Source of the DNA: Natribaculum luteum
GTDB taxonomy: Archaea > Halobacteriota > Halobacteria > Halobacteriales > Natrialbaceae
Length of the DNA stretch: 64,000 nucleotides
Direction: 5' to 3'
NCBI RefSeq assembly: GCF_023008545.1
Contig: NZ_CP095397.1
Coordinates: 2,715,199 to 2,779,198, forward strand
Part shown: in pieces, positions 9,829 to 56,678 of the stretch
Layout of the letters: each line of letters begins with the position of its first letter
Position numbering within the stretch: position 1 is the stretch's first letter
Made by a program: the position numbers and the translations under genes
The notes under the pieces: model-generated
What the model saw: the letters and a program-made list of their open reading frames with translations, nothing else
Database searches by the model: none
Told to the model about the DNA's origin: nothing

Positions 9829-9918
9829 CCGTCAGACGGACTACTGTCAGTCATTTCCGGTGCAATCGCAACCGTCCTGCGGTTGCACGGGTAAATCGGT
9901 ACAGCAGACCGTATCAGG
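9829..9918. repeat. Family-B palindromic element, copy B1, flipped. The right-arm sequence ggtacagcagaccgtatcag is the complement of the family left arm.
   Basis: Shares the outer arms (ctgatacggtctgctgtacc / ggtacagcagaccgtatcag) with copies at 14.2, 16.4, 43.1 and 56.6 kb. It has an inner stem gcaaccg/cggttgc. The TGA of the minus-strand cTGAtacgg is the stop codon of the quinone-oxidoreductase-like gene. Confidence 0.7.
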
Positions 9919-10867
9919 GAACGACGACGAGTTTCCCGAGGAAGCTCTCCGAGAGGACGTCCTCCTGTGCGTCGGCGACGTCCGCCAGGTCGTACGTTCG
10001 GTCGACGACCGGTTCGACGTCGCCACGTTCGTACAGCCTGGCGAGACGCTCGAGGACGGCCGCGACGTCGGGCGTGTTGAACATGCTGACGTGGTGGACG
10101 GTGAGCGCCTTCCCTCGCGCGGCAGGGACGTTCGGGAACGTCGCCTCGAGGTCCGTGTTACCGATCGCGGCGACGTCCGCGTCGAAGGCCGCGACGCGAC
10201 AGTCCAGCCCGAGGTAGTCGTCGAGTCGGTGATCGAGGATCGCGTCGGGTGCGCCCGCGGCCTCGATCCGTTCCTCGAGGTCGTCGGCCGCGTAGTCGAT
10301 TACGGTCTCGGCACCGAGGTCGGCGAGACGGTCGTGGTACTCGGGGGCGGCGGTCGTCGTCACGTCCGCGCCCGTCGCGGCGGCGAGCTGGACGGCGACG
10401 TGTCCGACGCCGCCGTTGCCGCCGTGGACGAGCGCCCGCTCGCCGGGCTCGAGGTCGCAGGCGTCGACGAGCGACTGCCAGGCGGTGACGCCGACGAGCG
10501 CGCCGGCGGCACCCGTTTCGAAGTCGACCGACGCGGGCAGCGTGGCGGCGAGGTCGTCGGGGACGGCGACGTACTCGGCGCAGGTCCCCGGATCGTCGTT
10601 GCCCAGCCCGGTCGCGAACACGCGGTCGCCGGCCTCGAAGTCGGCGTCCGCGCCCGTCTCCTCGACGACACCCGCGACGTCGGAGCCGGTGATCCAGGGC
10701 AGGTCGCCAGGCGGGTACGACCCCTCGCGGAAGTAGGTGTCGACGGGGTTGACCGCCCCTGCTTCGACGCGAACGAGGAGTTCGTCGGCAGCCGGTTGGG
10801 GTCGGTCGATCTCGTCGACGGTCAGTACCTCGGGTCCGCCGTGGTCGTGGTATCGAACGGCGCGCAT
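9914..10867 (-). CDS. Zn-dependent alcohol dehydrogenase / NADPH:quinone oxidoreductase family protein (MDR superfamily). The start is placed at internal ATG (MRAVRYHD).
   Basis: MRAVRYHDHGGPEVLTVDEIDRPQPAADELLVRVEAGAVNPVD is a typical quinone-oxidoreductase N-terminus. The upstream 49 codons of the ORF are a translation of repeat element A1. Confidence 0.8.
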   Translation of the reverse strand: MRAVRYHDHGGPEVLTVDEIDRPQPAADELLVRVEAGAVNPVDTYFREGSYPPGDLPWITGSDVAGVVEETGADADFEAGDRVFATGLGNDDPGTCAEYVAVPDDLAATLPASVDFETGAAGALVGVTAWQSLVDACDLEPGERALVHGGNGGVGHVAVQLAAATGADVTTTAAPEYHDRLADLGAETVIDYAADDLEERIEAAGAPDAILDHRLDDYLGLDCRVAAFDADVAAIGNTDLEATFPNVPAARGKALTVHHVSMFNTPDVAAVLERLARLYERGDVEPVVDRTYDLADVADAQEDVLSESFLGKLVVVP

Positions 10868-10920
10868 ACGGACACGAAGAACGGCCGTCGTAAAAACGTC
10901 CGCGAGGCGTGCTCGAGTGG

Positions 10921-11040
10921 GTTCATACTGCCGGACAACACGGTTCAGACATCGATCGCACTCGAGACGCTGTCGTCGCTGACGACAGCCGTCGAGACGC
11001 GATCGAGTAGTCACTGACTGTTGTCCGGTAGTATCAGAAC
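10921..11040. repeat. Family-A nested palindromic element, copy A1, about 120 bp.
   Basis: About 90% identical to 29477..29592 in inverted orientation. Outer arms gttcTGAtactaccggacaac / gttgtccggcagtatgaac. Inner perfect 9-bp inverted repeat gctgtcgtc-agc-gacgacagc. The TGA in cTGAtac is the stop codon of fhs. Confidence 0.75.
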
Positions 11041-12758
11041 AGCCCGGTGATCGTCCCGTCCGCCTCGAGGTCGACGTCCGTCGCGGCGGGGTCAGACGGC
11101 AACCCGGGCATCGTCAGCACGTCGCCGGTGAGCGCGACGAGAAAGCCCGCGCCGGCCGCTGGCCGAATCTCGCGGACGGTGAGCGTCCAGTCGGTCGGGA
11201 CGCCCGTTCGTTCGGGGTCGTCCGACAGCGAGTACGGCGTCTTCGAGAGACAGACCGGCAGCTCCTCGAGTCCGAGCCGTTCGATCCGCTCGAGATCGTC
11301 GGGTGCCGAGTCGACGTACTCGACGTCTCGAGCGCCGTAGACCTCGGTCGCGACGGTCTCGATCGCCTCGCGGACCGTCGCAGAGGAGTCGTACAGCGGC
11401 TGTCCCCGTCCCGGTTCGTCGACGGCGTCGGTCACCAGCTGGGCGAGTTCCGTGCCACCCTCGCCGCCGTCCCGGTGGACCGTCGATTCGGCGGCCGGAA
11501 TCCCCCGCTCGGCGAACGCCTCGAGGACGGCGTCGACCTCCTCGTCTGTATCCTGGGGGAAGCGGTTGAGCGCGACGACGACGGGCATCCCGAGGCGCTC
11601 GAGGATCTCGACGTGGGCGAGCGCGTTCTCGAGGCCGTCCAGGGCGGCCTCGACGTCGGGTTCGGCCAGTCGCTCTGTCTCGCTCGGCCACATCGACAGC
11701 CCCTGGCGTTTCAGCGCGCGGACGGTGACGACCAGCACCGCGGCCTCGGGTGCGAGCCCCGTCTGGCGGGTGACGACGTCGACGAACTTCTCCGCACCGA
11801 GTTCCGAGCCGAACCCGCCCTCGGTGACGAGGTACTCGGCACCCGCGAGTCCGACGCGGTCGGCGATCGCCGTGTTCGTCCCGTGGGCGATGTTGGCGAA
11901 CGGGCCGCCGTGGACGAACGCGGGGACGCCCTCGATCGTCTGGACGAGGTTCGGACGCAACGCGTCGCGAAGCAGAGCGGCGACGGCACCGCCGACCTCG
12001 AGGTCGGCGACCGTGACGGGGTCGCCGTCGCGGTCGTAGGCCACGACGATGCGCTCGAGTCGCGCCTTCAGGTCCGCGTAGTCCTCGGCGAGGCCGAGCG
12101 TCGCCATCAGTTCCGAGGCGGCGGTGATCTGGAAGCCGCCTTCCCGCGGGACGCCGTTTGCCTGCCCGCCGAGACCCAGGACGATCTCCCGGAGTGCGCG
12201 GTCGTTGACGTCGAGCGCTCGAGGCCAGGTGACCGATCGCGAATCGATCGGCGGATCGGCTCCGTGGTGGAGGTGTGCGTCGACCGCGGCGGCGACGAGG
12301 TTGTGAGCCGACGTGAGCGCGTGGATGTCACCGGTGAAGTGGAGGTTGATGTCCTCCATCGGGAGGACCTGCGAGTAGCCGCCGCCGGCAGCGCCACCCT
12401 TGATGCCGAAGACGGGGCCGAGGGAGGGCTCTCGAATCGCGACCGCCGCCGACTCGCCGCGTTTGGCGAGTGCCTGGCCGAGTCCGACCGTCGTGACGGT
12501 CTTTCCCTCGCCCTGGGGCGTCGGCGTCATGGCCGTGACGAGGACGAGGTTCCCCGTCGCTTCGCGCTCGAGCGCCCGCTGGAGCGCGTCGACCGACGGC
12601 TTCGCGACGTGGTCTCCGTAGCGCTCGAGGTCGTCCGGCTCGAACCCAAGCTTCGCTGCGACGTCGGAGATCGGGCTGGGCGCTGCCGCACGTGCGATCT
12701 CGAGGTCGTCCGGTACGCTCTCGTCTTCGTCTTCCGGGTGGGGATCTGGTGGCGACAT
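11034..12758 (-). CDS. fhs: Formate--tetrahydrofolate ligase. The start is at ATG 12758 (MSPPDPHPEDE).
   Basis: Hallmark motifs GEGKTVTTVGLGQAL and PSLGPVFGIKGGAAGGGYSQV, and end-to-end similarity to FTHFS. Confidence 0.95.
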   Translation of the reverse strand: MSPPDPHPEDEDESVPDDLEIARAAAPSPISDVAAKLGFEPDDLERYGDHVAKPSVDALQRALEREATGNLVLVTAMTPTPQGEGKTVTTVGLGQALAKRGESAAVAIREPSLGPVFGIKGGAAGGGYSQVLPMEDINLHFTGDIHALTSAHNLVAAAVDAHLHHGADPPIDSRSVTWPRALDVNDRALREIVLGLGGQANGVPREGGFQITAASELMATLGLAEDYADLKARLERIVVAYDRDGDPVTVADLEVGGAVAALLRDALRPNLVQTIEGVPAFVHGGPFANIAHGTNTAIADRVGLAGAEYLVTEGGFGSELGAEKFVDVVTRQTGLAPEAAVLVVTVRALKRQGLSMWPSETERLAEPDVEAALDGLENALAHVEILERLGMPVVVALNRFPQDTDEEVDAVLEAFAERGIPAAESTVHRDGGEGGTELAQLVTDAVDEPGRGQPLYDSSATVREAIETVATEVYGARDVEYVDSAPDDLERIERLGLEELPVCLSKTPYSLSDDPERTGVPTDWTLTVREIRPAAGAGFLVALTGDVLTMPGLPSDPAATDVDLEADGTITGLF

Positions 12759-12915
12759 ACCCGATCGTACGAGGGCCGGGGACAAACGTTCTGGCTGCCG
12801 TTCTCGTTCGACGGGAACGACGACCGAATCGGCCACGCGGACAGTCGCTTTCGTCGACTCGTGTGAACCCTTTTGGCCGTTCGAGGCGAAGATCGGCTGT
12901 ACAGCGGGTGTAAGT

Positions 12916-13128
12916 ATGGAAAAGAACGTGGGCGGGATCGATCGAACCACACGCATCGTCGTCGGAGCGTTCCTCACTGTCGCCGGAGTCGCCGGACTGG
13001 CCGGCTACTGGGCCGTCGGCATCGCGATCGGTGTCGCAGCGCTTCTGGTCGGAGTGATCCTCGTCGTGACCGGTACGACCCAGAAGTGCCCGATCAACGA
13101 AGCCGCAGGCGTCGACACGACTCGGTGA
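12916..13128 (+). CDS. DUF2892 (YgaP-like) small membrane protein.
   Basis: GGIDRTTRIVVGAFLTVAGVAGL signature followed by two TM helices. 70 aa. Confidence 0.65.
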   Translation: MEKNVGGIDRTTRIVVGAFLTVAGVAGLAGYWAVGIAIGVAALLVGVILVVTGTTQKCPINEAAGVDTTR

Positions 13129-13251
13129 CGGATCGACGGCGCGTCGGCGCTCGAGAGCGCTCGAGACGCACCGAATAGACGTAGTCGGCAGACGGCCAAT
13201 CGAATCGCCGGGGACCACAGATTCTTGCCCGATCGTTGCGAGTGTCCGTGC

Positions 13252-14220
13252 ATGGCCGACGAGTTCGACGTCCTCGTGCTCCGCAAGGGGACGCACGGAA
13301 CGCCAGTCGAGGAGTACGCAGCGGCGATCAGAGAGCGACTGCCCGAGACGGACGTTCGCCTCGCACGGACGCCCGCCGAGGAGCGCGAGGCGATCCGGGA
13401 CGCGCGGTTCGTCACCGGCATGACTCTCGAGGAGGAGCTGCTCGAGACCGCCGCCGACCTCGAGGTCTTCGCGTGTGCCTACGCGGGGACGGGTCACCTC
13501 CCGCTCGAGCGCCTCCGGGAACGGGGCGTCACGGTGACGAACGCCTCGGGCGTCCACGGGCCGAACATGGGCGAGCACGTCCTCGGGTCGATCCTCTCGT
13601 TCACCCGTCGGTTCCACGTGGGCGCGCGCCGACAGCGACGCCGGGAGTGGCGCCACTACCGGGCCCACGAACTCCAGGGATCGACCGTCACCGTGGTCGG
13701 ACTCGGCGCGATCGGGCGGGCGGTCGTCGAGCGCCTCGAGCCCTTCGGCGTGGAGACGATCGGCGTCCGGTACACCCCCGAGAAGGGTGGGCCAACCGAC
13801 GAGGTGGTCGGCTTCGACGACGACGCCGTCCACGACGCGCTCGCACGAACGGATTACCTCGTGCTCGCGTGTCCGCTGACGGACGCGACGCGCGGGTTGA
13901 TCGACCGCGAGGCGTTCGTCACGCTGCCGCCGGAGTCGGTGCTCGTGAACGTCGCTCGCGGCCCCGTCGTCGACACCGACGCACTCGTCGAGGCGCTTCG
14001 GTCGAACTGGATCCGCGGGGCCTCTCTCGACGTCACCGATCCCGAACCGCTGCCCGAAGACCACCCGCTGTGGACGTTCGAGAACGTCCAGATCACGCCA
14101 CACAACGCCGGACACACGCCGAAGTACTACGAACGACTGGCCGACATCGTCGCCGAGAACGTCGACCGGATTCGCGAGACCAGCGAGACGGACGGTCTCG
14201 AAAACCAGGTCCTGCCCTGA
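13252..14220 (+). CDS. D-isomer-specific 2-hydroxyacid dehydrogenase (NAD-binding) family.
   Basis: NAD-binding VVGLGAIGRAVVERL and a catalytic-domain arrangement typical of the D-2-hydroxyacid dehydrogenase family. ATG 13252 gives MADEFDVLVL. Confidence 0.85.
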   Translation: MADEFDVLVLRKGTHGTPVEEYAAAIRERLPETDVRLARTPAEEREAIRDARFVTGMTLEEELLETAADLEVFACAYAGTGHLPLERLRERGVTVTNASGVHGPNMGEHVLGSILSFTRRFHVGARRQRRREWRHYRAHELQGSTVTVVGLGAIGRAVVERLEPFGVETIGVRYTPEKGGPTDEVVGFDDDAVHDALARTDYLVLACPLTDATRGLIDREAFVTLPPESVLVNVARGPVVDTDALVEALRSNWIRGASLDVTDPEPLPEDHPLWTFENVQITPHNAGHTPKYYERLADIVAENVDRIRETSETDGLENQVLP

Positions 14221-14229
14221 CTCGCGGGT

Positions 14230-14317
14230 TCATATCGCCTGCTGTACCTGTTTCCCGGCGCACCCGCAAGCCGTCCGGCGGTTGCCCCAGAACTGACGTA
14301 CAGCAGACGGTATCAGG
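14230..14317. repeat. Family-B palindromic element, copy B2.
   Basis: tcatatcgcctgctgtacctg...cccgcaagccgtccggcggttgcccc...gtacagcagacggtatcagg. It begins 9 nt after the stop of the 2-hydroxyacid dehydrogenase. Confidence 0.7.
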
Positions 14318-14477
14318 CTCCGGTCTCGCTTCCGGCGCGCTCGAGTCGACGCGGGTTTATCACATTCGAGGCCGAACCCTCGGCCAGCATGGATTCACCA
14401 CGAGTTCGTCGCGTCTCGAGGCGACACGAGAGGGCTGCACACGAGAACGACGGCGTCCACCGGGCGGTGACCTCGCG

Positions 14478-14909
14478 ATGACGCTCTCGTTCGACGGGCG
14501 GGTGATCGTCCCCGTCGCCGATCCGGACGACGCCGAACGGACCGCGGCCACGCTCGCACCGAAGATCGAACCGACGGGTACTGCCGTCGTCGTCTACGTC
14601 GTCGAGAAAGCCGGCGGCGGCATCGACAAGGCGTCGGTCGAACAGCGCGAGGGGTACGCCGAGCGGATCTTCGAGCGCGCCCGCCAGCCGCTCGAGGCGG
14701 CGGACGTCCCGGTCGAGACCGAGATTTTGTACGGGACCGACGTCGTGGAGACGATTTTCGACGGGGCGATCGACTGGGACGCGGACGCGGTGGCGTTCGT
14801 ACCGCGACAGAGCAATCGTCTCGTGGAACTGCTGACGGGCGACGTGGCCCGAAAACTGGTCAGGAACGCAGAGATACCCGTCGTCGCTCTCCCGCAGGAC
14901 GGCGAGTGA
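14478..14909 (+). CDS. Universal stress protein (UspA).
   Basis: MTLSFDGRVIVPVADPDD...AVAFVPRQSNRLVELLTGDVARKLVRNAEIPVVAL is the typical Usp fold signature. Confidence 0.8.
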   Translation: MTLSFDGRVIVPVADPDDAERTAATLAPKIEPTGTAVVVYVVEKAGGGIDKASVEQREGYAERIFERARQPLEAADVPVETEILYGTDVVETIFDGAIDWDADAVAFVPRQSNRLVELLTGDVARKLVRNAEIPVVALPQDGE

Positions 14910-14910
14910 G

Positions 14911-15945: not shown

Positions 15946-16121
15946 TGACGGCCCTCGGTGACGGTGGTCTAAAACCATTTGGGTCGTGTCACGGTTTGCA
16001 TCGGCCGGAACGCCGCGGTCGGCACTCGCCGGACACGAGGCGGTGGCCGACGCTCGCGATCGGCGTCGACGGGGGACGGCGTCGCAACTCGAGGGACGGA
16101 GAATCGAGACGAGAATCCAGT

Positions 16122-16313
16122 TTACGCCGGAACCTGTGCGCCCTTCTTGCGGGTGACGTAGCCCGCGATCCGGTTGCGAACGCCCTTCGAGTCGATGTTG
16201 GTCAGCTTCTCGACGCTGTCTTTGTTCTGTTCGAAGTCGGTCGTAAACGCGTCCGGGTATCGCTCGAGCAGGATGTTCCCGGTCTTCTTGACGTAGGCCG
16301 GTTTGATTGCCAT
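16122..16313 (-). CDS. rps17e: 30S ribosomal protein S17e.
   Basis: MAIKPAYVKKTGNILLERYPDAFTTDFEQNK is the classic S17e N-terminus. 63 aa. Confidence 0.9.
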   Translation of the reverse strand: MAIKPAYVKKTGNILLERYPDAFTTDFEQNKDSVEKLTNIDSKGVRNRIAGYVTRKKGAQVPA

Positions 16314-16335
16314 ACAGAGTGGTTCCGTCTAGAGG

Positions 16336-16345
16336 CCCTTATAAC
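16336..16345 (-). promoter_or_regulatory. Candidate TATA box (ccTTATAAcg) for rps17e, at about -27 from the start codon.
   Basis: The only AT-rich hexamer in a GC-rich spacer. The spacing suits a leaderless archaeal mRNA. Confidence 0.4.
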
Positions 16346-16375
16346 GCACCATTTCTGCTGATCGACGACCCGGGT

Positions 16376-16462
16376 TCATACGGACCGCTGTAAGTACTTA
16401 CCGCAGCGACCGCCCGACGGGACGCGGTCGCTGCGGAAAATAGTTACAGCAGACCGCATCAG
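16376..16462. repeat. Family-B palindromic element, copy B3.
   Basis: ttcatacggaccgctgtaag ... perfect 13-bp inner stem ccgcagcgaccgc/gcggtcgctgcgg ... ttacagcagaccgcatcag. The minus-strand cTGAtgcgg supplies the stop of the antiporter gene. Confidence 0.75.
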
Positions 16463-17688
16463 TCGTCCGACTGGATCACGCCGAGTGCGGCCGCGATCTG
16501 TCTCGCGAAGCCCGCCTCGACGACGACCGTCACGAGGATGACCAGAAAGACCGTGCCGAGCAGGACCTCCGCACCCGCGGGATCGGAGGGCGGCGTCTCC
16601 GTCTCGAGGCGGATGGCAAAGAGGGTCGCGACCGATGCGGGGACGATCCCCCGAGGCCCGACGAAGCTGATGAACAGCCGTTCGTGGGTCGAGAACCCTC
16701 CACCGGCCGTCGAGACGAAGACGAGCAGCGGGCGAAGCAGCAGCGTCAACACGGCGACGACCGCGAGGCCGGCGACGCCGAGCGCGAGGAGTTCCGAGAA
16801 CTCGAGCAACGCCGCGAGCGTGATGAAGACGAACGAGAGGACGAGCAGCGTCACGTCCTGGTTGAACTGCAGGATGCTCTCCCGGTGGGGGAGTTCGAGG
16901 TTCCCGAGGGTAAAGCCCGCGGTGGCTGCGGCCGCGATGCCGGCCTCCGAGAACACCGAGTCCGCGATCGCAAAGGCGACGACTGCTCCGGCCAGCGCGA
17001 GTAACCGGGCCGTCTGTGGTGCCGCCTGCTCCGGGAGGTCGACCCGCGTGAGGAGATACCAGACGACGCCCGCGATCGCGAGGCCGGTGAGGATTCCCAT
17101 CCCGAGGCGCTGTGCGAACAGGAAGACGTACCCTCTTGGCGCGAGTTCCTGGGCCGTCATCGCCTTGAAGAGGACGATCGCGAGGATCGCCGCGGTGACG
17201 TCGTTGACGATCCCTTCTGTCTCGAGCGTCGTCGCGACCTCCTCGCGGACGGGAACGACCGCGAGGATCGGCGTGATGACCGTCGGCCCGGTCGCGACCA
17301 GCAGCGCGCCGACGAGAAGCGAGACGTCCAGACTCGCCCCGAGCAGGAGCCGGACGGTCAGGGCGGTCCCGACGAACGCCATCGCCGCGCCGACCGTGAT
17401 CAACCACCAGACCGCCCGCGGTGCGTTTCGGACGGTCTCGTGCTCGAGTCGGAACGATCCCTCGAAGACGATGATGGCGACGCTCACCCCGACGATCGTC
17501 GAGAGCGCCTCCCCGAAGGTGTCGGTCGTGATGACGCCGAGTCCCTCGGGGCCGATGGTGACGCCCGCGACGATGAGAAACAGCACGCTGGGGACGCGGT
17601 ACTTCGCGGCGAGAAACTGGGCTGTGACGCCGAATGCGACGATGGCCGCGACGAGCGCGATGAGGTCGAGGTCGACGTGGACGGACAC
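16459..17688 (-). CDS. Na+/H+ (monovalent cation:proton) antiporter, CPA1/NhaP-like.
   Basis: 409-aa polytopic membrane protein with motifs typical of the sodium/hydrogen exchanger family (GPEGLGVI, FEGSFRL). Confidence 0.75.
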   Translation of the reverse strand: MSVHVDLDLIALVAAIVAFGVTAQFLAAKYRVPSVLFLIVAGVTIGPEGLGVITTDTFGEALSTIVGVSVAIIVFEGSFRLEHETVRNAPRAVWWLITVGAAMAFVGTALTVRLLLGASLDVSLLVGALLVATGPTVITPILAVVPVREEVATTLETEGIVNDVTAAILAIVLFKAMTAQELAPRGYVFLFAQRLGMGILTGLAIAGVVWYLLTRVDLPEQAAPQTARLLALAGAVVAFAIADSVFSEAGIAAAATAGFTLGNLELPHRESILQFNQDVTLLVLSFVFITLAALLEFSELLALGVAGLAVVAVLTLLLRPLLVFVSTAGGGFSTHERLFISFVGPRGIVPASVATLFAIRLETETPPSDPAGAEVLLGTVFLVILVTVVVEAGFARQIAAALGVIQSDD

Positions 17689-17900
17689 CGGTTCACCGAC
17701 CCCCTCGACTGCGACGTTCGACGTGGTACTCGTCGGACGAACTGCCGATCCGCCATCGCGAACCGTGCGTCACGGCCGCCCGGCGCTGGCCGGATGTCGC
17801 GACCGACATGGCCCGTGCTACGACACCCACCGACAAAATCCTCATCCCCTTCCGCACGTGGGGGTCCACCTGCAGTCGATCCACCGCGGTCGCGGGAACT

Positions 17901-25951: not shown

Positions 25952-27322
25952 ATGTCTACGGAAAGTCACGACGTAGTGGTCATCGGCGGCGGAACCGCCG
26001 GCTGCTTCGCCGCGGCGACCGCTGCCCAGGAAGGGGTCGACGTCGTCCTCCTCGAGCGCAAGACCGAGGAGGAGGCGGGACACATCGCCTGTGGCGACGG
26101 AATCAAGGGCGCGAGTGCGTTTCCCGACGTCGTCGACCGCGACCGGCTCGACGAGGAGGCGTTTACCAACCGGAACATCAGCAGGGCGATCTTCGAGAAT
26201 CCCCAGACCGGCGAGTCGATCGACGTCCCGTTCGACGAGTCCGGCGGCGTCGTCGACCGCTGGACGTACGGGCGGGTGCTCCTCGACGAGGCCGACCGTG
26301 CCGGCGCGGAGATCCACTACGAGACGGTCGTTCAGGACGTCGTCCAGCCCGACGATCGGGTCGAGGGCGTGACGGCGATGCGGAACGGAGAGCCAGTCAC
26401 GTACGAGGCCGACGTCGTCGTCGACGGGGCGGGATCGCTCTCGTTGCTCCAGGACAGGATCGACTTCTCCGGGTCGACGTTCGACACCAACGTCACCTAC
26501 CAGCAGTTCTGCTCTGCCTATCGTGAGATCCTCGAGGTCGACGACCCCGTCGACTGGGACGACGCGCTGGTGTTCAAGCCCACCGAGGAACTGGGCTACC
26601 TCTGGTACTTCCCGCGCTCCTCGACGGAGATCAACGCCGGGCTGGGCTTTCAGATGAACAAGCCGCCGATGAAACTCGTCGAGGACCTCAAACGCGACCT
26701 CGAGACCCGACCCGAGTTCCGGAACGCGACAGTGACGGACAAACTGGGTGCCGCTCTCCCGACCCGGCGGCCCTACGACTCGGCCGTCCATCCGGGGTAC
26801 GTCGCCGTCGGCGACGCCGCAGCCCACGTCAATCCCTGTACCGGCGGCGGGATTCCGGGCGCGGCGAAGGCGGGCCACTGGGCGGCGGAGGTCGCCATCG
26901 AGGCGATCGGCGACGGCGACGTCGGCGAGGCCGCGCTGTGGGAGTACAACCGACGCGTCCAGACCGGCTTCGGCAAGCGCTTCGCCGCGATGGACCTCTA
27001 CAACATTTTCGGCGGCGCTCACGACGTCGACGAACTGGTCTCGGTGATCACCTCGTTGCCCGGCCAGCAACTCGTCGACGCCATCGGGAAACGGGGCACT
27101 GCCTCCATGGGGCTCGGCCTGAAGCTCAAGACGATCCTGAAGACGTTCGGCCACTGGGACGTCCTCTACGAACTCTACAGGGTCCAGAGTCTCGCCGCCG
27201 ATCTCAAAGACGTCTACGACTCCTACCCGGGCGACCCGGCCTACTTCGACGCCTGGCAAAAAGAGCGCGACGCCGTCATGGACCGACTGTACGACGTCAC
27301 GGGTGCGGAGCCGAAGTACTGA
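25952..27322 (+). CDS. Geranylgeranyl reductase family FAD-dependent oxidoreductase (digeranylgeranylglycerophospholipid reductase-like).
   Basis: FAD-binding VVVIGGGTAGCFAA and GD motif. The 456-aa length is typical of haloarchaeal GGR. Confidence 0.8.
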   Translation: MSTESHDVVVIGGGTAGCFAAATAAQEGVDVVLLERKTEEEAGHIACGDGIKGASAFPDVVDRDRLDEEAFTNRNISRAIFENPQTGESIDVPFDESGGVVDRWTYGRVLLDEADRAGAEIHYETVVQDVVQPDDRVEGVTAMRNGEPVTYEADVVVDGAGSLSLLQDRIDFSGSTFDTNVTYQQFCSAYREILEVDDPVDWDDALVFKPTEELGYLWYFPRSSTEINAGLGFQMNKPPMKLVEDLKRDLETRPEFRNATVTDKLGAALPTRRPYDSAVHPGYVAVGDAAAHVNPCTGGGIPGAAKAGHWAAEVAIEAIGDGDVGEAALWEYNRRVQTGFGKRFAAMDLYNIFGGAHDVDELVSVITSLPGQQLVDAIGKRGTASMGLGLKLKTILKTFGHWDVLYELYRVQSLAADLKDVYDSYPGDPAYFDAWQKERDAVMDRLYDVTGAEPKY

Positions 27323-27345
27323 TACTATCTGACAATAGCCAGTAC
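27316..27345. repeat. Short hairpin starting with cTGAtac at the geranylgeranyl reductase stop. It is a minimal family-A/B-like terminus.
   Basis: gtacTGAtactatctgacaatagccagtac, with arms gtactg/cagtac. The TGA is the stop codon of the geranylgeranyl reductase. Confidence 0.5.
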
Positions 27346-27432
27346 GTACTCGAGAGCGACTCGCCCTGTCGGACGGCGAACCGCTGGCCGCGATCCCAAC
27401 CCCTTTTCCCACCGGTCGACTACCCGTCGGCG

Positions 27433-29476: not shown

Positions 29477-29592
29477 CTGTTACTACTGGACAACGGTCAG
29501 TGACTACTCGATCGCGTCTCGCCGTCTGTCGCCGCTGGCGACAGCGTCTCGAGTGCGATCGATGCCTGAACCGTTTTGTCCAGCAGTATGAC
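29477..29592. repeat. Family-A nested palindromic element, copy A2.
   Basis: About 90% identical to the reverse complement of 10921..11040. The terminal TGA is degenerate here (ctgttac). Confidence 0.75.
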
Positions 29593-42574: not shown

Positions 42575-43144
42575 TTGAATCGTCCCGCCGCCGTATCGGC
42601 GAACGTGACAGAGTACGACGCAGTCGTCTACGACCTCGACGGGACGCTCGTCCGCCTCGACGTCGACTGGGACGCGGCGGCCGTCGACGTCCGCGAGGTG
42701 TACGAGGAGGCGGCCATCGACCCGCCCAGCGACGACCTCTGGGACCTGCTCGCGCTCTCGGAGGAGGTCGGCCTGGACGAAGAAGTCGAGGCGGTACTCG
42801 CCGCCCACGAACGCGACGGAGCGCGCACCTCGGAGCAACTCGCACACGCAGACGAGTTACTCGCCCGCGAGGGGCCCGTCGGCGTCTGTTCGCTCAACTC
42901 CGAGGCAGCCTGTCGCCTCGCCCTCGAGAGACACGGCTTGCTCGAGGCGGTCGACGTCGTTGTCGGACGGGACACGGTCACCAACCGGAAACCGCACCCG
43001 GAGCCGCTACTCGTGGCCGTTCGCGCGCTGTCGGTCGAACCGGAGCGGACGCTGTTCGTCGGCGACTCCGCGCGCGACGAGGAGACGGCGAAACAGGCGG
43101 GGACGGATTTCGAGTACGTCGGCGACGGTCCCTCCGGCCACTGA
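42575..43144 (+). CDS. HAD-family phosphatase.
   Basis: DAVVYDLDGTLV motif I and VGDSARDEETAKQAG motif IV. Confidence 0.75.
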   Translation: MNRPAAVSANVTEYDAVVYDLDGTLVRLDVDWDAAAVDVREVYEEAAIDPPSDDLWDLLALSEEVGLDEEVEAVLAAHERDGARTSEQLAHADELLAREGPVGVCSLNSEAACRLALERHGLLEAVDVVVGRDTVTNRKPHPEPLLVAVRALSVEPERTLFVGDSARDEETAKQAGTDFEYVGDGPSGH

Positions 43145-43230
43145 TACGGTCTGCTGTACCTGTGTACCGGGGCGGCCGCAAGACGGTGCGCGGTTGTCCC
43201 GGTACTGACGTACAGCGGTCCGTATGATAC
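43141..43230. repeat. Family-B palindromic element, copy B4.
   Basis: cTGAtacggtctgctgtacc tgtgta ccggggcggccgc aagacggt gcgcggttgtcccgg tactgac gtacagcggtccgtatga. The TGA is the stop codon of the HAD-family gene. Confidence 0.8.
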
Positions 43231-47498: not shown

Positions 47499-47504
47499 GA
47501 CTTT

Positions 47505-48570: not shown

Positions 48571-48597
48571 TGGAACTTACCTCGAGTTAGTTGAACC

Positions 48598-48846
48598 ATG
48601 AATCTCGAACGATTCGTCCGCGACGACGGACGACTGGCGCGGCAGTACGACTACGGTGACGAGACGGTACTGGCCGTCGACTTCGGCCCGGCCGGTGCAG
48701 ACGCGTCGGTCGACGTCGTCGACGGCACCGTAATCGTCGTCTTCGACGACGAGCAGCGGGAGCTCGAGCTCCCGGCCGACGTCGAGGACGCGCAAGCGTT
48801 TATCAGAAACGGCGTGCTCACTATCGAGATGGAGGTAGACGCATGA
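48598..48846 (+). CDS. Small acidic protein of 82 aa, translationally coupled to cdc48. It may be a beta-sandwich Hsp20-like protein.
   Basis: Its stop overlaps the cdc48 start as ATGA. Composition is haloarchaeal. Confidence 0.4.
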
Positions 48847-51104: not shown

Positions 51105-51149
51105 TGTTCCAGCCGGTCTGACTACCGCGTAGCGGTCCCCCGAGACGTC

Positions 51150-51160
51150 GATTTTTCCGA
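51150..51160 (+). terminator. Oligo-T (T5) archaeal-type terminator downstream of cdc48.
   Basis: cgatttttccg about 50 nt after the stop. Confidence 0.4.
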
Positions 51161-51189
51161 TCGACCGAGACGACCGCCGGACACGAGTC

Positions 51190-51663
51190 TCAGTGAGCCG
51201 CCGGTGCCGACTCGAGTTCCGCGAGGATCTCGTCGGCGTGACCCTCCGGTGAGACGTCCTCGTAGACGGCCTCGACGCATCCGTCCGCGTCGATCACGTA
51301 CGTGTTACGGAAGACGCCGTCGAAGGTGTTGCCGAACATCTGTTTCTCGCCGTAGGAATCGTACAGTGTCGACACCTCGCCGTGTTCGTCCGAGAGCATG
51401 TCGAAGGGAATGTCGTGGTCGTCGGCGAACGCCGCCAAGTCGTCGACGGGGTCGTCACTGATCCCGACGACAGCCACGTCCAGGTCGTCGAACGCGGCTC
51501 TGGCGTCGCGAAAGCTCTTGGCCTCAATGGTACAGCCGCGCGTGTTCGCACGGGGATAGAAGTAGACGACGACTCGCTGCCCTTCGAACTCCGAGAGTCG
51601 GATCGTCTCGCCGTGCTGGTTGGGCAGTTCGAACTCCGGTGCGTCCGCCCCTACGTCAAGCAT
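51190..51663 (-). CDS. bcp: Peroxiredoxin (Bcp-type thiol peroxidase, AhpC/TSA family).
   Basis: Peroxidatic Cys in FYPRANTRGCT. 157 aa. Confidence 0.85.
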   Translation of the reverse strand: MLDVGADAPEFELPNQHGETIRLSEFEGQRVVVYFYPRANTRGCTIEAKSFRDARAAFDDLDVAVVGISDDPVDDLAAFADDHDIPFDMLSDEHGEVSTLYDSYGEKQMFGNTFDGVFRNTYVIDADGCVEAVYEDVSPEGHADEILAELESAPAAH

Positions 51664-51753
51664 AGCCGTGAATTCGACTGATCGAAGGTATGTTTATCGG
51701 TATCAACCGAGTGAAAACTTCGCATACGTTGTTGGCCGTTTACTCGAGGTCGC

Positions 51754-52641
51754 TCACTCGAGCGGTTCCGCCGCGTCGCGGTCGACGAGCGGCGTCGCGT
51801 TCGCCTGGGGGAGCGTGACGACGTCGTCGCTCTCGAGGGTGTACTCGCGATCGTCGACGCCGAGGATCGAACCGACGTCTCGGGTAATCCGGACGGTGAC
51901 GCGATCGACGCTTCGGTCCGGGTCGTCGGCGTCGGTGTGTTCGCCGTCCGTTTCTGTCCCGTCGCTGTCGGCCGATTCGTCGTCGGGGGTACGGGTCGTC
52001 GCCGGGTCGGGAGGTGACGGCGGGGCGTCCGCGGACGGCTCGGGTTCCGTGGGGACGTCCCCGGCCATGACGTCGGCTGCCGAGACCGACGACGGCTCCG
52101 CGTCGCCGGTGGCAGCGCCCGGGTCTGTAGGTCGGTCGTCCGGCGGTTCTTCCGGCGGTACTGGCGGTACGTCGTCGGCAGGTGCCGTCGCCGCGCTGTC
52201 GGTCCCGGTGGGGTCGTCCGTCGAGTCGTCGGCCGCATCCGACTCGTCGGGACGCTCCCCCTCGAGGACGTCGAGGACGCGCCCCTTGTTCGTCTGGATG
52301 CGGTCGACGAGGTCGGAAAAGAGATCCTGTTCCTCCGCGGTCAGGCCGTCGTCGTCGGCCGGCATCCCCGCGGCGGCCAGACTCGCCTGCTTGACGAGTT
52401 TGCCCATTCGCCGCTCGTAGATCGCCTCGACGACGTCTCGAGCGGCTTCGATCTCGTCCGTGAGCCGCCCCACCTCGGGCGAGGCGAACGGATCGTCGGC
52501 GCGTTCGGCGGCGCGGTTGCGTTCGTCCTCGAGATCGGCGATGTACTCGCCGACCTCCTGGTAGAACGAGGGGCGCAGGTTCTGGAGGCTGTCTTTCTGG
52601 CGCTCCTTGCTCTGGACCGTGCGCAACTCGTCTAGGTTCAT
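51754..52641 (-). CDS. GINS-like (Gins15/51-type) replication protein with a long acidic disordered insert.
   Basis: The N-terminal region MNLDELRTVQSKERQKDSLQNLRPSFYQEVGEYI is GINS A-domain-like. It is translationally coupled to priS (ATGA), as in other archaea. The middle region of about 110 aa is Asp/Pro/Thr-rich. Confidence 0.55.
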   Translation of the reverse strand: MNLDELRTVQSKERQKDSLQNLRPSFYQEVGEYIADLEDERNRAAERADDPFASPEVGRLTDEIEAARDVVEAIYERRMGKLVKQASLAAAGMPADDDGLTAEEQDLFSDLVDRIQTNKGRVLDVLEGERPDESDAADDSTDDPTGTDSAATAPADDVPPVPPEEPPDDRPTDPGAATGDAEPSSVSAADVMAGDVPTEPEPSADAPPSPPDPATTRTPDDESADSDGTETDGEHTDADDPDRSVDRVTVRITRDVGSILGVDDREYTLESDDVVTLPQANATPLVDRDAAEPLE

Positions 52642-53816
52642 CGTTCTTTCTCCTTTTCTGCCCTGCCACGCGCCATGAGAAACGTCGCGACGTACTCCGG
52701 GAGTGACTGGTCACCCTCCGGAACTGTAAAGATGTCGCCGTCGAGTTCGACCTCGCCGCCGCGAGTGACGTCGACCGCGATCTCGTGGCTGCGGAACGTC
52801 TCGGGGACGGCGTCGACCAGCGGATCGAACGCGTCGAGTTCGTCCCGGTCGATGCGACGCACCTCGAGGGCGCTCCCGCCGTGGAGGCTCCCCGGCAGCC
52901 GGATGAGCCGGTTGGTGTCGGTCGTCACCGGCTCGTCGATCGGCGCGTTGTCGCGCTCGACCGCCCGCGTCGCGAATCGTTCTGCGAGCTGGGCGACGGC
53001 CGTGTGTACGGTGACGTTGCCCGCCTCGAGCTCCTCGCGGTTGTTCCGGGCGGCGTTGAGTGTGGCGGTCGCCTTCCCCTCGCCGATGCCGTCGAACGCC
53101 TGGAGGCGCTCGAGGGCCGCTGCTTCCTCGAGTTCGAGCAACTCGTCGACGAACGCGACGAACCGCCGGTGAGTTCGGCGGCCCCAGCCGCCGTCGGTCC
53201 GCAGGGTGCGTCGCTCCGTCGGCGTCTTCCGTCCCAGTCCGGCGACGGTCTCGGTCTCGACCAGTTCGTCGAACTCGAGGCCGATGCCGCGGACGTAGTC
53301 GACGATCTCGCGGCGGTGCTCGCGGTCGAGGTGGCGGACGCTCTCGTCGCGAACGTGGACGTGGTAGCCGCGACCGCCGGAGAAGACGACCTCGAGGTCC
53401 TCGAACGCGAAGTCGTCTTCGAGGAAGTCGAGCAGTCGACAGAGGGCGTCTTTGCACTTCGCGAGCATCTCGGCGTAGCTGTCCTCGCCGAGCGTAACTG
53501 CGGGCAGGTGATCCGCGTCGAGGTCGAAGACCAGGTCGGAGGAGCGCCAGCCTTTCTCGCTCATCGAGCTCGCGCCGGGATCGTCGTACCGGCCGGCGGA
53601 GAAGTAGACGTGCCGGGGGCGTTCGCGCTCGAGGAACTCCTCGACGGCGCCGAGCTCGAGCAGCGAGCGGTGACGGACCATCGTCGTTCCCGGTCCGTCC
53701 GTCCACGGGATGTATCCCCACTCGCGTTCGTTGGCTGCGGGTGGCAGCGTGATCTCCGTCCGGCGGTAGTGATCTCGAAATCGCCCACGTAGGTAGGCTC
53801 TCGTTCGCTCCTCCAT
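52638..53816 (-). CDS. priS: DNA primase small (catalytic) subunit PriS.
   Basis: DLVFDLDADH metal site, SGGRGYHVHV, archaeo-eukaryotic primase fold. Confidence 0.9.
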   Translation of the reverse strand: MEERTRAYLRGRFRDHYRRTEITLPPAANEREWGYIPWTDGPGTTMVRHRSLLELGAVEEFLERERPRHVYFSAGRYDDPGASSMSEKGWRSSDLVFDLDADHLPAVTLGEDSYAEMLAKCKDALCRLLDFLEDDFAFEDLEVVFSGGRGYHVHVRDESVRHLDREHRREIVDYVRGIGLEFDELVETETVAGLGRKTPTERRTLRTDGGWGRRTHRRFVAFVDELLELEEAAALERLQAFDGIGEGKATATLNAARNNREELEAGNVTVHTAVAQLAERFATRAVERDNAPIDEPVTTDTNRLIRLPGSLHGGSALEVRRIDRDELDAFDPLVDAVPETFRSHEIAVDVTRGGEVELDGDIFTVPEGDQSLPEYVATFLMARGRAEKEKER

Positions 53817-53844
53817 GCGCCTCGCTTACTCGGCCTGCCGATGG

Positions 53845-53860
53845 TATAATATTGCCGGAC
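53845..53860 (-). promoter_or_regulatory. TATA candidate (gatggtataatattgc) for priS.
   Basis: At about -27 from ATG 53816. Confidence 0.4.
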
Positions 53861-54050
53861 TGTCGTCGCCGCTCGAGAGTCGTTCGCATTCGACTGTCGC
53901 CGGCGAGGGTCAGTCGCTCTCGTCTGACGTTCTCGAACGAGGGTCGTTCGGACGGGATCGACTGTCGACACTGCGAACCGTTCTGAGGCGACGAGGAGCG
54001 TTCCACCGACGCGTCGCTCGGGGGAATGGGAGGTCGTGACTGGACCGGGC

Positions 54051-54524
54051 CTACCGCCGTACCAGGTCCGAGATCCGATCCGTGATGCCGCCGTCGCCGA
54101 GTTTGAGGTAGTAGGCGTCGCCGCCATCCTCGTAGTAGTTGTCGATCCGGCGTTTGATCTCGAAGCCGAGGTGTTCGTAGAACTGGAGGGCGTTCTCGTT
54201 ACTCGTCCGGGCGTGGCAGGTGATCGTGTTGTGATCCTCCGCGACGCAGGCGATCAGTCGCTTGCCGATCCCCTCGCCGCGATACTCCGGCGAGACGGCC
54301 AGAAAGAGGATGTATCCGTCGCGACGGACGGCCGCGAAGCCGACCAGTTTCTCGTCCTCGAGCGAGCAGTGGACCGTCGCGCGGCGGTAGGCGTCCGTGA
54401 AGAAGCCGCGTCGCTGTTTGAGCACGCCCTCGCGTTGGTGGATGCGCTCTTTGAGCTCCCAGGCGTCTTCGACGTACTCGTCACTGCCCGGGGCGACGAC
54501 ACGGCTGTCGACGTTGACGCTCAC
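54051..54524 (-). CDS. GNAT-family N-acetyltransferase.
   Basis: Acetyl-CoA-binding motif RGEGIGKRLI. Confidence 0.8.
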   Translation of the reverse strand: MSVNVDSRVVAPGSDEYVEDAWELKERIHQREGVLKQRRGFFTDAYRRATVHCSLEDEKLVGFAAVRRDGYILFLAVSPEYRGEGIGKRLIACVAEDHNTITCHARTSNENALQFYEHLGFEIKRRIDNYYEDGGDAYYLKLGDGGITDRISDLVRR

Positions 54525-54660
54525 TACCCTCGAGTAACAGCGACGTCAATATAATTCCACCGGCAACTGCTCGCAAGTCCGTCGATTTCGAAGCCGATCA
54601 CGAAGCCGCGGTCCACTGCGGCGATGGACCTACTACCCCTGCCGTCGAACCCACTGTCGA

Positions 54661-55083
54661 ATGCGTACGAGTTTCGAACTCCGCGAGCACACAGCCGACG
54701 TCGCCGTCGCCGCGACGGGACCGACGCTCGAGGCAGTCTTCGCCGCCGTCGCCGACGGCCTCGCGGCAGCCAGTTGCGACGACGTGCCCGAAGAAGGCGC
54801 CCGGTTCGACGTCGACGTTCGCGCCGAAAGTCGAGAGGCGCTGCTGTTCGACTACCTCGACGAACTGATCTACCTGCGCGACGTTCGCGGCGAACTCCCC
54901 GTCGACAACCACGCGACGATCACGGAACCCGATGGCGACGACGAGTGGCACCTCGAGGGAAGCGCCCGCGGGGTCCCGCTCGAGGCCGTCGACGCCCGCG
55001 ACGTGAAAGCCGTCACCTACTCCGAGATGCGCCTCGAGGAGACCGGGGAGGGGTGGGAGGCGTACGTCGTCTTCGACGTGTAG
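54661..55083 (+). CDS. Archease (RtcB activator).
   Basis: FELREHTADVAV ... VKAVTYSEMRLEE are the archease signatures. It sits directly upstream of rtcB. Confidence 0.9.
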   Translation: MRTSFELREHTADVAVAATGPTLEAVFAAVADGLAAASCDDVPEEGARFDVDVRAESREALLFDYLDELIYLRDVRGELPVDNHATITEPDGDDEWHLEGSARGVPLEAVDARDVKAVTYSEMRLEETGEGWEAYVVFDV

Positions 55084-55131
55084 CCGCGTTGCAGGAACAG
55101 GTCTTTCACCGATGCTCGCGGACGGTCGAGT

Positions 55132-56592
55132 ATGACCACGTTCGACGCAGACGGCATCACGCTCGAGCAGGTATCGGAGTACGTCTGGGAGATTCCACGG
55201 GAGGGGGACATGCGCGTTCCCGCTCGCGTGTTCGCGAGCGAACTCCTGCTCGAGGAGATCGCCGGTGACAAGACCCTAGAACAGTTGAAAAACTCGACGC
55301 AGCTGCCGGGAATGACGAAGTACGGGATCTGCATGCCCGACGGCCACCAGGGCTACGGCTTCCCGGTCGGCGGTGTGGGGGCGCTCGATGCCGAAGACGG
55401 CTGTATTTCTCCGGGAGCGGTCGGCTACGACATCAACTGCGGCGTCAGGATGATGAAAACTAACCTGGCCTACGACGACGTACAGGGCACCGAACAGGAG
55501 CTCGTCGACGCCCTGTTCGAGAACATTCCGTCGGGGCTGGGCGGCGGCGGCGTCGTCGAGACGGACGTCGACACCATCGACGAGATCCTCGAGGGTGGCG
55601 TCCGGTGGGCGCTCGAGAACGGCCACGCCGTCGAGGACGACCTGGCCCACTGTGAAGACGAGGGCTTCCGCGCGGAGGCCGACGCCTCGAAGATCTCCCA
55701 GAAGGCGAAAGACCGCGGGAAGAATCAGGTCGGCTCGCTGGGATCGGGCAACCACTTCCTCGAGGTCCAGCGAGTCACGGACGTCTTCGACGAGACGATC
55801 GGCGACGCGTACGGACTCGAGGAGGATCAGATCGTCGTCCTCATCCACTGTGGGTCGCGAGGGCTGGGTCACCAGACGTGTAACGATTACCTGCGAAAGA
55901 TCGAAAAACAACACCAGGGGCTGTTGAACCAGCTCCCGGACAAGGAACTCGCGGCCGCACCCGCGGGCTCACAGCTCGCAGAGGACTACTACGGCGCGAT
56001 GAACGCAGCGATCAACTTCGCGTGGGTCAACCGCCAGCTCATCATGCACCGCACGCGGCAGGTGTTCGAGCAGGTCTTCGATCGGCCGTGGCAGGAGATG
56101 GGGATGGAACTGCTCTACGACGTCGCCCACAACATCGCGAAAAAGGAGACGCACACCGTCGACGGCGAGGAGGGCGAGTACTTCGTCCACCGCAAGGGAG
56201 CGACACGGGCGTTTCCGGCGGGCCACCCCGAGGTACCAGAGGCCTACCGCAGCGTCGGCCAGCCGGTCATCATCCCGGGCAGCATGGGGTCGGGCAGTTA
56301 CGTCCTCTCCGGTGGCGACAACTCGATGGAACTCACGTTCGGCTCGACGGCCCACGGCGCGGGTCGAGTGATGAGTCGCACGCAGGCGAAGAAAGACTAC
56401 TGGGGCGGCGACGTCCAGCAGGAACTGCGCGACCAGCAGCAGATCTACGTCAAAGCCCAGTCGGGTGCGACCGTCGCCGAGGAAGCGCCGGGGGTCTACA
56501 AGGACGTCGACGAAGTCGTCCGCGTCTCGGACGAACTCGGCATCGGCGACAAGGTGGCGCGGACGTTCCCCGTCTGTAACATCAAGGGCTGA
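55132..56592 (+). CDS. rtcB: RNA-splicing ligase RtcB.
   Basis: MPDGHQGYGFPVGG, DINCGVRM, and the HGAGR nucleotidylation site. Confidence 0.95.
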   Translation: MTTFDADGITLEQVSEYVWEIPREGDMRVPARVFASELLLEEIAGDKTLEQLKNSTQLPGMTKYGICMPDGHQGYGFPVGGVGALDAEDGCISPGAVGYDINCGVRMMKTNLAYDDVQGTEQELVDALFENIPSGLGGGGVVETDVDTIDEILEGGVRWALENGHAVEDDLAHCEDEGFRAEADASKISQKAKDRGKNQVGSLGSGNHFLEVQRVTDVFDETIGDAYGLEEDQIVVLIHCGSRGLGHQTCNDYLRKIEKQHQGLLNQLPDKELAAAPAGSQLAEDYYGAMNAAINFAWVNRQLIMHRTRQVFEQVFDRPWQEMGMELLYDVAHNIAKKETHTVDGEEGEYFVHRKGATRAFPAGHPEVPEAYRSVGQPVIIPGSMGSGSYVLSGGDNSMELTFGSTAHGAGRVMSRTQAKKDYWGGDVQQELRDQQQIYVKAQSGATVAEEAPGVYKDVDEVVRVSDELGIGDKVARTFPVCNIKG

Positions 56593-56678
56593 TACGGTCT
56601 GCTGTACCTGTGTCCCGGGGCGACCGCAAGACGGTTCGCGGTTGCCCCGGTACTTGACGTACAGCGGTCCGTATGAGA
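56589..56678. repeat. Family-B palindromic element, copy B5.
   Basis: cTGAtacggtctgctgtacc tgtgt cccggggcgaccgc aagacggtt cgcggttgccccgg tacttgac gtacagcggtccgtatga. The TGA is the rtcB stop codon. It is about 90% identical to B4. Confidence 0.8.

Follow-up and report, generated by a model that had tools for sequence, protein, structure and literature searches.

The small mobile repeats of Haloquadratum walsbyi (HqIRS42, 43, 55 and HqIRS40, 41; Dyall-Smith et al. 2011, PMC3119063) are the closest described class to the element studied here, a hairpin of 86–88 bp, referred to as family B, which is present in five copies in a 64,000-nucleotide stretch of the genome of Natribaculum luteum (contig NZ_CP095397.1, positions 2,715,199 to 2,779,198; this whole stretch is called the window in what follows). 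Like family B, the Haloquadratum repeats are haloarchaeal, non-coding and 80–120 bp long, they exist in dozens of copies, they have prominent terminal inverted repeats that are unrelated to known transposons, they show a strong target preference, and their mobilizer was described as "enigmatic" (PMC3119063). They show a "switch", too, two strains having different families, or the same family reversed, at an identical position (PMC3119063), and comparable exchanges are seen for family B. Insertion of the Haloquadratum repeats is reported to occur without target duplication, whereas family B shows a duplication of 3 bp; their targets are the near-terminal palindromes of IS605-type elements and PATEs, whereas family B is found at GAC|TGA, mostly at gene stops, and in other copies of itself. 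The two come from different genera, and they are set side by side by description, not by sequence.

We propose, with a probability that we put at roughly 60%, that family B is a non-autonomous element of the haloarchaeal family Natrialbaceae, similar to a transposable element of the miniature inverted-repeat type (MITE) or to a small mobile repeat, which inserts at T-N-A triplets. Its anatomy, spread, association with stop codons, target duplication, target preference and the turnover of its sites are described below, before the mechanism is considered. No description of family B was found in the literature searched, and the genome paper of Natrialba magadii makes no mention of MITEs or palindromic repeats.

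Comparison with other known systems

The duplication of a T-N-A triplet is a property of the IS1031 group of the IS5 family (3-bp TNA) and of the PIF/Harbinger-Tourist elements (TWA). Like the MITEs that duplicate such triplets, family B is short and non-coding, has terminal inverted repeats of 14–15 bp and a 3-bp T-N-A repeat, is present in many copies and nests in itself. Unlike them, it forms a hairpin as an entire element, its target has a one-sided extension (GAC|TGA), and no matching autonomous insertion sequence was found in the sampled blocks. A length of 50–800 bp with no capacity to encode a transposase, terminal inverted repeats of 10–15 bp or more, target duplication and dispersed copies with presence/absence differences between genomes, all of which are used to recognize MITEs, are found in family B; an autonomous partner is the missing item in this sample.

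The repetitive extragenic palindromic sequences (REPs) and the REPINs of bacteria are also palindromes present in hundreds of copies outside genes, for the most part a few bases from 3' ends between convergent or tandem genes, with a short tag and a variable stem. In REPs tagged with GTAG, the TAG often serves as the stop of the flanking open reading frame (ORF), and these REPs lie less than 20 bp from 3' ends (PMC3733652). A tag, TGATAC, is common to family B and to a second family of the window, family A (see below), whose units are, like those of family B, 2–4 times longer than REPs. On the other hand, REPs are 20–40 nt long and REPINs are paired, both are bacterial and neither duplicates its target; the system is defined by a RAYT gene with REPs on its flanks, and the sampled blocks show no such gene.

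The resemblance to the PATE derivatives of IS200/IS605 elements is limited to the one-sided GAC preference. PATEs have separate subterminal hairpins, a 5' target of 4–6 nt and no duplication, whereas family B has terminal inverted repeats, a single whole-length hairpin and a duplication. As for the attC sites of integrons, they too are imperfect palindromes (57–141 nt) at or over an ORF stop, in which structure is conserved over sequence and unpaired bases are conserved, but family B comes with no IntI and no cassette arrays, its cores are TGATAC/GTATGA rather than AAC/GTT, and the genes that flank it are core genes in synteny. The likeness to attC is architectural only.

Anatomy of family B in the window

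The initial annotation of the window had reported a repeat in five copies, and this is confirmed: a covariance model trained on the five copies, run with filters off over all 64 kb, gives these five (84–104 bits) and then nothing better than 15 bits (E 0.15). The coordinates first given for them are reproduced within 1–3 nt. The whole-length hairpin of 86–88 bp is therefore present in exactly five copies in the window, which corresponds to a density of about one per 13 kb; the covariance model finds the same five on the opposite strand with lower scores, and the spaced pattern CTGTA...TACAG has four matches in the window for 0.05 expected. The copies are as follows (genes of the window were called from third-position GC and Pfam).

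B1, 9832..9917, minus strand, 83.8 bits: the 5' TGA (9914-9916) is the stop of an alcohol dehydrogenase (ADH)-like gene, 9914..10867/11014(-); the 3' TGA is at 9832-9834.
B2, 14230..14316, minus strand, 86.5 bits: TGA at both ends (14313-14315 and 14230-14232), off any gene stop.
B3, 16376..16462, minus strand, 98.2 bits: the 5' TGA (16459-16461) is the stop of a Na+/H+ exchanger gene, 16459..17688(-); the 3' TGA is at 16376-16378.
B4, 43141..43227, plus strand, 103.8 bits: the 5' TGA (43142-43144) is the stop of a HAD hydrolase gene, 42575..43144(+); the 3' TGA is at 43225-43227.
B5, 56589..56676, plus strand, 104 bits: the 5' TGA (56590-56592) is the stop of rtcB, 55132..56592(+); the 3' TGA is at 56674-56676.

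Every copy folds into a single long hairpin, with z-scores from -2.9 to -8.9 (none of 200 shuffles equals it) and a stability as low as -58 kcal/mol. The outer stem and the GC-rich inner stem of 11–13 bp that had been predicted are recovered by folding, the outer stem being made of 6 + 9 bp with one conserved mismatch between. The outer arms are not complementary throughout, contrary to what had been thought: the outermost triplets, TGA/TGA, are direct repeats, and the inverted repeat begins at TAC and finishes at GTA.

The strands given above define the natural orientation of the copies (minus for B1, B2 and B3, plus for B4 and B5). Reading all five on the plus strand was abandoned, since the 5' arm is nearly invariant only when B1–B3 are reversed; the first 18 bases, CTGAT(A/G)C(G/C)GTCTGCTGTA, are then almost the same in the five copies. 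Column identity is 74% with all copies on the plus strand, 79% with B1 reversed, and, with B1–B3 reversed, 78% over flanked windows or 84% when trimmed to the element. In the natural orientation each copy reads C-TGA-TACGGTCTGCTGTA...CCGT(A/C)-TGA and opens with C-TGA-TACGG. The element proper (about 81 bp) extends from TACGGTCTGCTGTA to TACAGC(A/G)G(T/A)CCGTA and is self-complementary over its full length; in its terminal inverted repeats, TACGGTCTGCTGTA pairs with TACAGCRGWCCGTA over 14–15 bp with one conserved mismatch. The interior of B2 is flipped relative to the other four copies of the window, and B4 and B5 differ by 4 substitutions and 1 indel. Family B is non-coding, no ORF entering or crossing the element.

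Spread in Natrialbaceae

A species-representative genome collection was scanned with a degenerate pattern of the 5' arm, which returned at least 120 blocks of 8 kb (these blocks and the other loci compared are numbered L001 and so on). Among the matches listed, at least 113 blocks come from about 35 haloarchaeal genomes of more than 12 genera, nearly all of them Natrialbaceae: Natrinema, Natronorubrum, Natrialba, Haloterrigena, Halostagnicola, Natribaculum, Salinadaptatus, Natrarchaeobius, Natronosalvus, Natronococcus, Halobiforma and Haloarchaeobius, as well as several metagenome-assembled genomes. Seven bacterial blocks among the same matches are due to chance, and so are two matches on viral contigs (L001, L002), which are 19-mers within low-GC phage coding sequence. 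A profile search of the listed blocks gives at least 138 copies of family B, and 57 places on 18 haloarchaeal plasmids match the consensus by BLAST. The window belongs to a third Natribaculum genome and is about 95.5% identical to those of N. breve and N. longum; B3 is conserved in both and B4 in N. breve (L070). Exact-protein look-ups for the B4/B5 region in the sister genomes gave no match on record.

Position on stop codons and target preference

According to the initial annotation the copies are always immediately 3' of a gene. This is correct as to the side and imprecise as to the position: in B1, B3, B4 and B5 (four of the five) the upstream gene has the 5' TGA as its own stop codon, and B2 lies tail to tail with a 2-hydroxyacid dehydrogenase gene of the opposite strand, 13225..14220(+), 10 nt past its stop, where the TGA of B2 terminates only an ORF of 25 codons. 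The placement of the element on a TGA stop codon, with TGA on both flanks, is the defining feature of the family, and it was absent from that annotation.

The relation holds in the related genomes, where, among 108–109 full copies with a 5' TGA, 57–59 have a long ORF with high GC at third positions that ends in frame at this triplet. If any non-coding or tolerated TGA were equally usable, 8–15% would be expected; crude gene calls inflate the non-coding fraction, so that the true expectation could be about twice as high. Among the 91 cases that could be classified, 73 have an upstream gene that heads into the element (median distance, -2 nt); on the downstream side, the gene is convergent in 44 and tandem in 47. 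Nine ORFs in frame +1 that seemed to enter the element were discarded as high-GC shadow frames of genes that end at the TGA.

The 5' flank has codon periodicity and a consensus, C-G-A-C, directly before the TGA. The GAC precedes the TGA in 58% of the copies that sit on gene stops and in 43% of the others, for 11% of the genes that end with TGA and have no element. TGA is found on both sides in 84 of 122 copies, one of the two ends being imposed by the search pattern. The TGA cases alone do not distinguish a true duplication from a 3' TGA that is carried by the element.

Evidence for mobility and for a 3-bp duplication

Evidence that does not depend on these cases is given by a nested copy at another triplet, by reversed copies and by the filled and empty gap-pgk sites. 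For the nested copy (block L117), the sequence of the host copy is ..GGTAACGAC-TTA-(complete insert)-TTA-CACCAGACCGTA-TGA, with AACGAC before the first TTA, whereas the consensus of the family has at this point a single GACTTACAGCAG (GACTTACAG). Because the consensus has only one copy of that stretch, TTA was duplicated in L117. In two other blocks (L082 and L019), inserts lie within host copies at CACTGAC-TGA, between two TGA triplets. In these three cases the GAC is part of the host sequence; it is therefore a target preference and is not borne by the element. Two whole elements (L103 and L066) are inserted in reverse and flanked by TCA..TCA, at sites where the other strand reads GAC-TGA.

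Comparisons with orthologous loci point in the same direction. The 80 metagenomic orthologues of RtcB that were compared all lack the element and end with ..KG (most of them CNIKG) followed by TGA, TAG or TAA; since all share the same C-terminus in the absence of the element, B5 sits exactly at the native stop of rtcB. On plasmids, the gap-pgk junction is filled in N. breve, ..CGC-TGA-(element)-TGA-CGCCGTCC (with CGCC.. after the TGA), and empty in Natrinema caseinilyticum, ..CAC-TGA-CGCCCCGACC; it is likewise empty in N. magadii, and in Natronorubrum bangense this TGA bears another copy, which has diverged. Two other candidates for empty sites were rejected, namely L102 and L104 for B3, which are paralogous exchanger loci, and the L041/L027 pair, in which 51 nt are added and the stop codon differs, so that it is not a clean empty site. 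The MITE-like reading of the initial annotation is supported by hundreds of copies dispersed in many genera, by nesting with a 3-bp duplication, by filled and empty sites, and by the replacement of one family by another that is described in the next section.

Once inserted, the copies change. The copy at the B2 site of the window and that of N. breve (L034 6694-6778) are about 67% identical, for flanks that are about 95% identical, and the N. breve orthologue is short of about 23 nt, which fuses the gene stop to the interior of the element. In this comparison the palindromes decay or convert much faster than their surroundings. In another pair of loci (L109 1625-1710 and L055 7627-7712), the copy of Natrialba taiwanensis is complete and that of N. 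aegyptia is cut to its first 28 nt, 9 nt of flank being gone as well; this reduction is an imprecise deletion and not a clean excision.

Family A and the reuse of the same sites

The window contains a second family of hairpins, family A, in three copies, two of which are on gene stop codons.

10923..11036, minus strand: copy of 114 nt, TGA-TACTACCGGACAA...TTGTCCGGCAGTA-TGA; its 5' TGA (11034-11036) ends the formate-tetrahydrofolate ligase gene.
29478..29591, plus strand: full copy flanked by TGT...TGA, on no recognized gene stop.
27320..27360 (3' limit approximate), plus strand: truncated copy; the 5' TGA (27320-27322) is the stop of gene 25952..27322(+).

Family A folds with the same layout as family B (stem, mismatch, stem), and the equivalent mismatch is at the same place. 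Furthermore, the two families replace each other. The stop of the ADH-like gene carries B1 in the window, and in N. breve and N. longum an unrelated hairpin of 118 nt, TGA-TACTACTGGACAAAA...TTTTGTCCGGCAGTA-TGA; at the stop of the formate-tetrahydrofolate ligase gene it is the window that has family A, and these two genomes have family B. The boundaries of the exchanged segments (9832-9917 and 10923-11036 in the window, 16343-16460 and 15251-15337 in L205/L206) are at identical TGA triplets. These two stop codons are reused repeatedly.

In Natrinema limicola (L015 84-369), a family-A-like element of 203 bp (TACTACAGGACAG...CTGTCCAGCAGTA) abuts a copy of family B, one TGA being common to both. 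It may be that the ends of the elements (GTA-TGA) are themselves targets. A different palindromic element follows directly the TAA stop of rtcB in two metagenome contigs, L164 and L166 (..ggctgtacgtctgtgacgaatttcgccactccggggtggcgaat..atagttacag..), and may represent a family akin to these in a further genus of haloarchaea.

Conservation of the hairpin

The covariation of the stems, to which the initial annotation had pointed as a check, is found. In 147 aligned sequences, 93% of the cells are paired, and 19 of the 30 pairs show compensatory double changes (205 cells); one pair of the inner stem, for instance, is UA in 57 sequences, CG in 38, AU in 24 and GC in 6. None of 500 shuffles reaches any of the pairing measures, and sliding the partners lowers the pairing to 27–44%. 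A T.T mismatch in the outer stem is conserved in 66 of 84 scorable copies. The palindrome is kept, which does not tell whether RNA, single-stranded DNA or self-correction during replication is responsible.

The central loop is found in both orientations between near-identical copies (52 and 30). It consists of GCAGGACGGTCGC or of its exact reverse complement, GCGACCGTCCTGC, and the two forms can occur in one genome (L027 6643-6728 and L064 3870-3955, for example). This flip-flop may be due to recombination of one arm with the other, to template switching or to an intermediate in hairpin form. In one subfamily the entire interior is flipped relative to the ends.

Neighbouring genes and other repeats

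A 49-codon ORF (9596-9745, minus strand) begins 86 nt downstream of B1 and has two CxxC pairs, like a zinc ribbon; both N. breve and N. longum have it annotated as a gene, and it has no Pfam match. B3 is 63 nt upstream of rps17e (16122..16313, minus strand), so that B1 and B3 occupy the upstream regions of the following genes, the 49-codon CxxC ORF and rps17e, respectively. In a contig from a soda-lake brine (L126), the 3' flank of rtcB has a tandem direct repeat of two units, gtggtcgctgtagggagtcggccgtcgggg.

Mechanism of insertion

The mechanism that we favor, in keeping with the MITE-like reading, is a cut-and-paste reaction that would be performed by a transposase acting in trans with cuts staggered by 3 bp. 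The element enters T-N-A triplets, in the great majority TGA and by preference GAC|TGA, and the triplet is then found on both sides as a 3-bp duplication. TGA is the most frequent stop in these genomes, and GAC-TGA (aspartate, stop) is a frequent end of genes in their acidic proteomes. An insertion into a stop codon rebuilds the stop and leaves the protein unchanged; it would survive, while insertions at a TGA within coding sequence would be lost; the copies would seem glued to the 3' ends of genes because the former survive and the latter do not. The hairpin may be maintained because the mobilizing enzyme needs it, or else because long palindromes self-correct during replication. The nested TTA..TTA copy, the reversed TCA..TCA copies and the terminal inverted repeats of 14–15 bp all support the 3-bp staggered cut.

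Several observations weigh against this proposal. A hairpin that is conserved over its whole length by compensatory changes is more than would be needed by a transposase that reads terminal inverted repeats only. The target preference is one-sided, with GAC on the 5' side only, and the orientation of the interior relative to the TGA strand is biased, about 19:6 in the 25 copies that escape selection by the pattern. Families A and B have in common TGA|TAC...GTA|TGA and their architecture, and no long inverted repeat. About 1 Mb of element-bearing flanks, a sample without whole genomes and ISfinder, contain neither an autonomous element whose ends match nor a transposase gene that recurs; all-against-all clustering of 900 flanking proteins gave no recurrent transposase or small protein either. 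The long elements with matching ends that were considered in these flanks are only pairs of separate copies around ordinary genes (L046, with Sir2 and AtpD; L109, with a regulator; L076). The genes between inverted pairs of copies, in this incomplete sampling, encode a regulator, riboflavin-related proteins, Sir2 and AtpD, none of them a transposase; the regulator of L109 is one that we take to be of IclR type from its translation, without a family search. Lastly, the pattern used to collect the copies demanded CTGA at one end, so that the dominance of the 5' TGA is partly built in, and the gene calls come from a crude filter on GC at third codon positions. The one-sided target, the orientation bias, the full hairpin and the likeness of A and B in their tags alone suggest a better fit to an enzyme that reads structure or single strands.

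The alternative that survives best is accordingly that of a single-strand hairpin element moved by an HUH/Y1 enzyme (TnpA of IS200/IS605, or RAYT-like), i.e. an archaeal counterpart of REPs and REPINs whose 3' TGA is its own cleavage site. The folded top strand and its conserved mismatch would be recognized and pasted 3' of (GAC)TGA, and we consider this unlikely, although much of what has been said above is what it predicts: a full hairpin kept by compensatory changes, the T.T mismatch (66/84) with its equivalent in family A, a preference on the 5' side only, the orientation bias and the precise reuse of one target by different families. It is also consistent with the bacterial GTAG REPs, which often provide the stop of the flanking ORF and lie less than 20 bp from 3' ends (PMC3733652), and Natrialbaceae possess IS200-type genes and many IS1341-type genes (PMC3403918). 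But the nested TTA..TTA copy and the reversed copies with the same triplet on both sides, which a target duplication accounts for simply, would each require a coincidence of two changes; terminal inverted repeats are absent from IS200/IS605 elements and from the PATEs derived from them, whose subterminal hairpins are separate; and no Y1 gene flanked by copies was seen in the sampled blocks. A pure IS200/IS605-type mechanism cannot yield reversed copies with the same triplet on both sides, and this is why we place the duplication model first and the single-strand model second.

In a broader version of this idea, which we put forward tentatively and consider unlikely, A and B would form a superfamily recognized by its shape, whose members would be moved as folded single strands by an enzyme onto (GAC)TGA stops. 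The shape in question would be a terminal stem of 5–6 bp, one conserved unpaired position, a stem of 9–10 bp, an internal loop and a GC-rich inner stem, between TGATAC/GTATGA tags.

It is distinctly improbable that the hairpin is kept mainly for a role at the 3' end of mRNA (as a terminator, as a barrier to 3' exonucleases or as a protein-binding site), its spread being secondary. Such a role would suit a hairpin that is very stable (to -58 kcal/mol), whose pairing is kept by double changes, and which would be co-transcribed with a gene of the same orientation directly upstream in 80% of the copies. However, no run of four T or more occurs within 15 nt after any copy of the window, and in the flank profile T reaches at most 35 of 107 at any of the first 14 positions; the oligo-T at the point of termination that characterizes archaeal intrinsic terminators is absent. 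The wobble pairs might have been evidence for RNA, G:T being more frequent than A:C on the TGA strand in the model alignment (97 and 57), but this excess is due to one inherited variant (28 copies) and was rejected as such evidence; the inner stem alone gives 44 and 30, which is not significant, and the count by arm alignment 178 and 179. About 40% of the copies are away from gene ends, the upstream gene points away from the element in 18 of 91 cases, orthologues of RtcB and of gap-pgk do without it, and copies are exchanged for unrelated sequence, or decay quickly, between genomes that are about 95% identical. The initial annotation had proposed, besides a MITE-like element, a terminator, a REP-like stabilizing or factor-binding structure, or a non-coding RNA; these readings find no support, as there is no Rfam match, no T-run after the element, no conservation of its presence across genera and no robust G:T excess. 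A secondary influence of the element on the 3' ends of mRNA may nevertheless exist.

That the hairpin is a structure-specific site like attC, used as a folded single strand by a tyrosine recombinase with TGA as the crossover core, is very improbable: its size (87–118 nt), its imperfect whole-length palindrome, an architecture that is conserved across A and B while the sequence varies, a conserved unpaired base that recalls the extrahelical bases of attC and its location at ORF stops all resemble attC, but the copies are scattered on both strands among syntenic housekeeping genes without cassette arrays, no integrase gene is nearby, the core is not AAC/GTT, and copies are nested. Least credible of all is an independent family of small RNA genes, which a stable and conserved fold might suggest and which is contradicted by the absence of any match in the whole window at Rfam gathering thresholds, by a 5' flank that is coding-periodic with no conserved promoter-like sequence, by loops in both orientations, by flipped interiors and by rapid turnover.

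Implications

Family B is a widespread feature of Natrialbaceae without description in the literature searched, and it matters for the annotation of these genomes, where such hairpins can mislead the prediction of terminators, small RNAs and gene ends. The same-site swaps of families between genomes that are about 95% identical, together with the orientation of the loop, are usable as strain markers.

Family B has a direct effect on the form of gene 3' ends: in dozens of housekeeping genes the stop codon doubles as the flank of a transposon. On the MITE-like reading, a high copy number in a compact genome would be reached by using a target whose duplication restores the sole essential triplet. 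The data also provide a handle on how the small mobile repeats of haloarchaea move. If families A and B did prove to be one superfamily recognized by its shape, it would be an archaeal analogue of the REP-RAYT or attC-IntI chemistry, and this would explain both the "enigmatic" mobilization of small mobile repeats and their switching at the same site.

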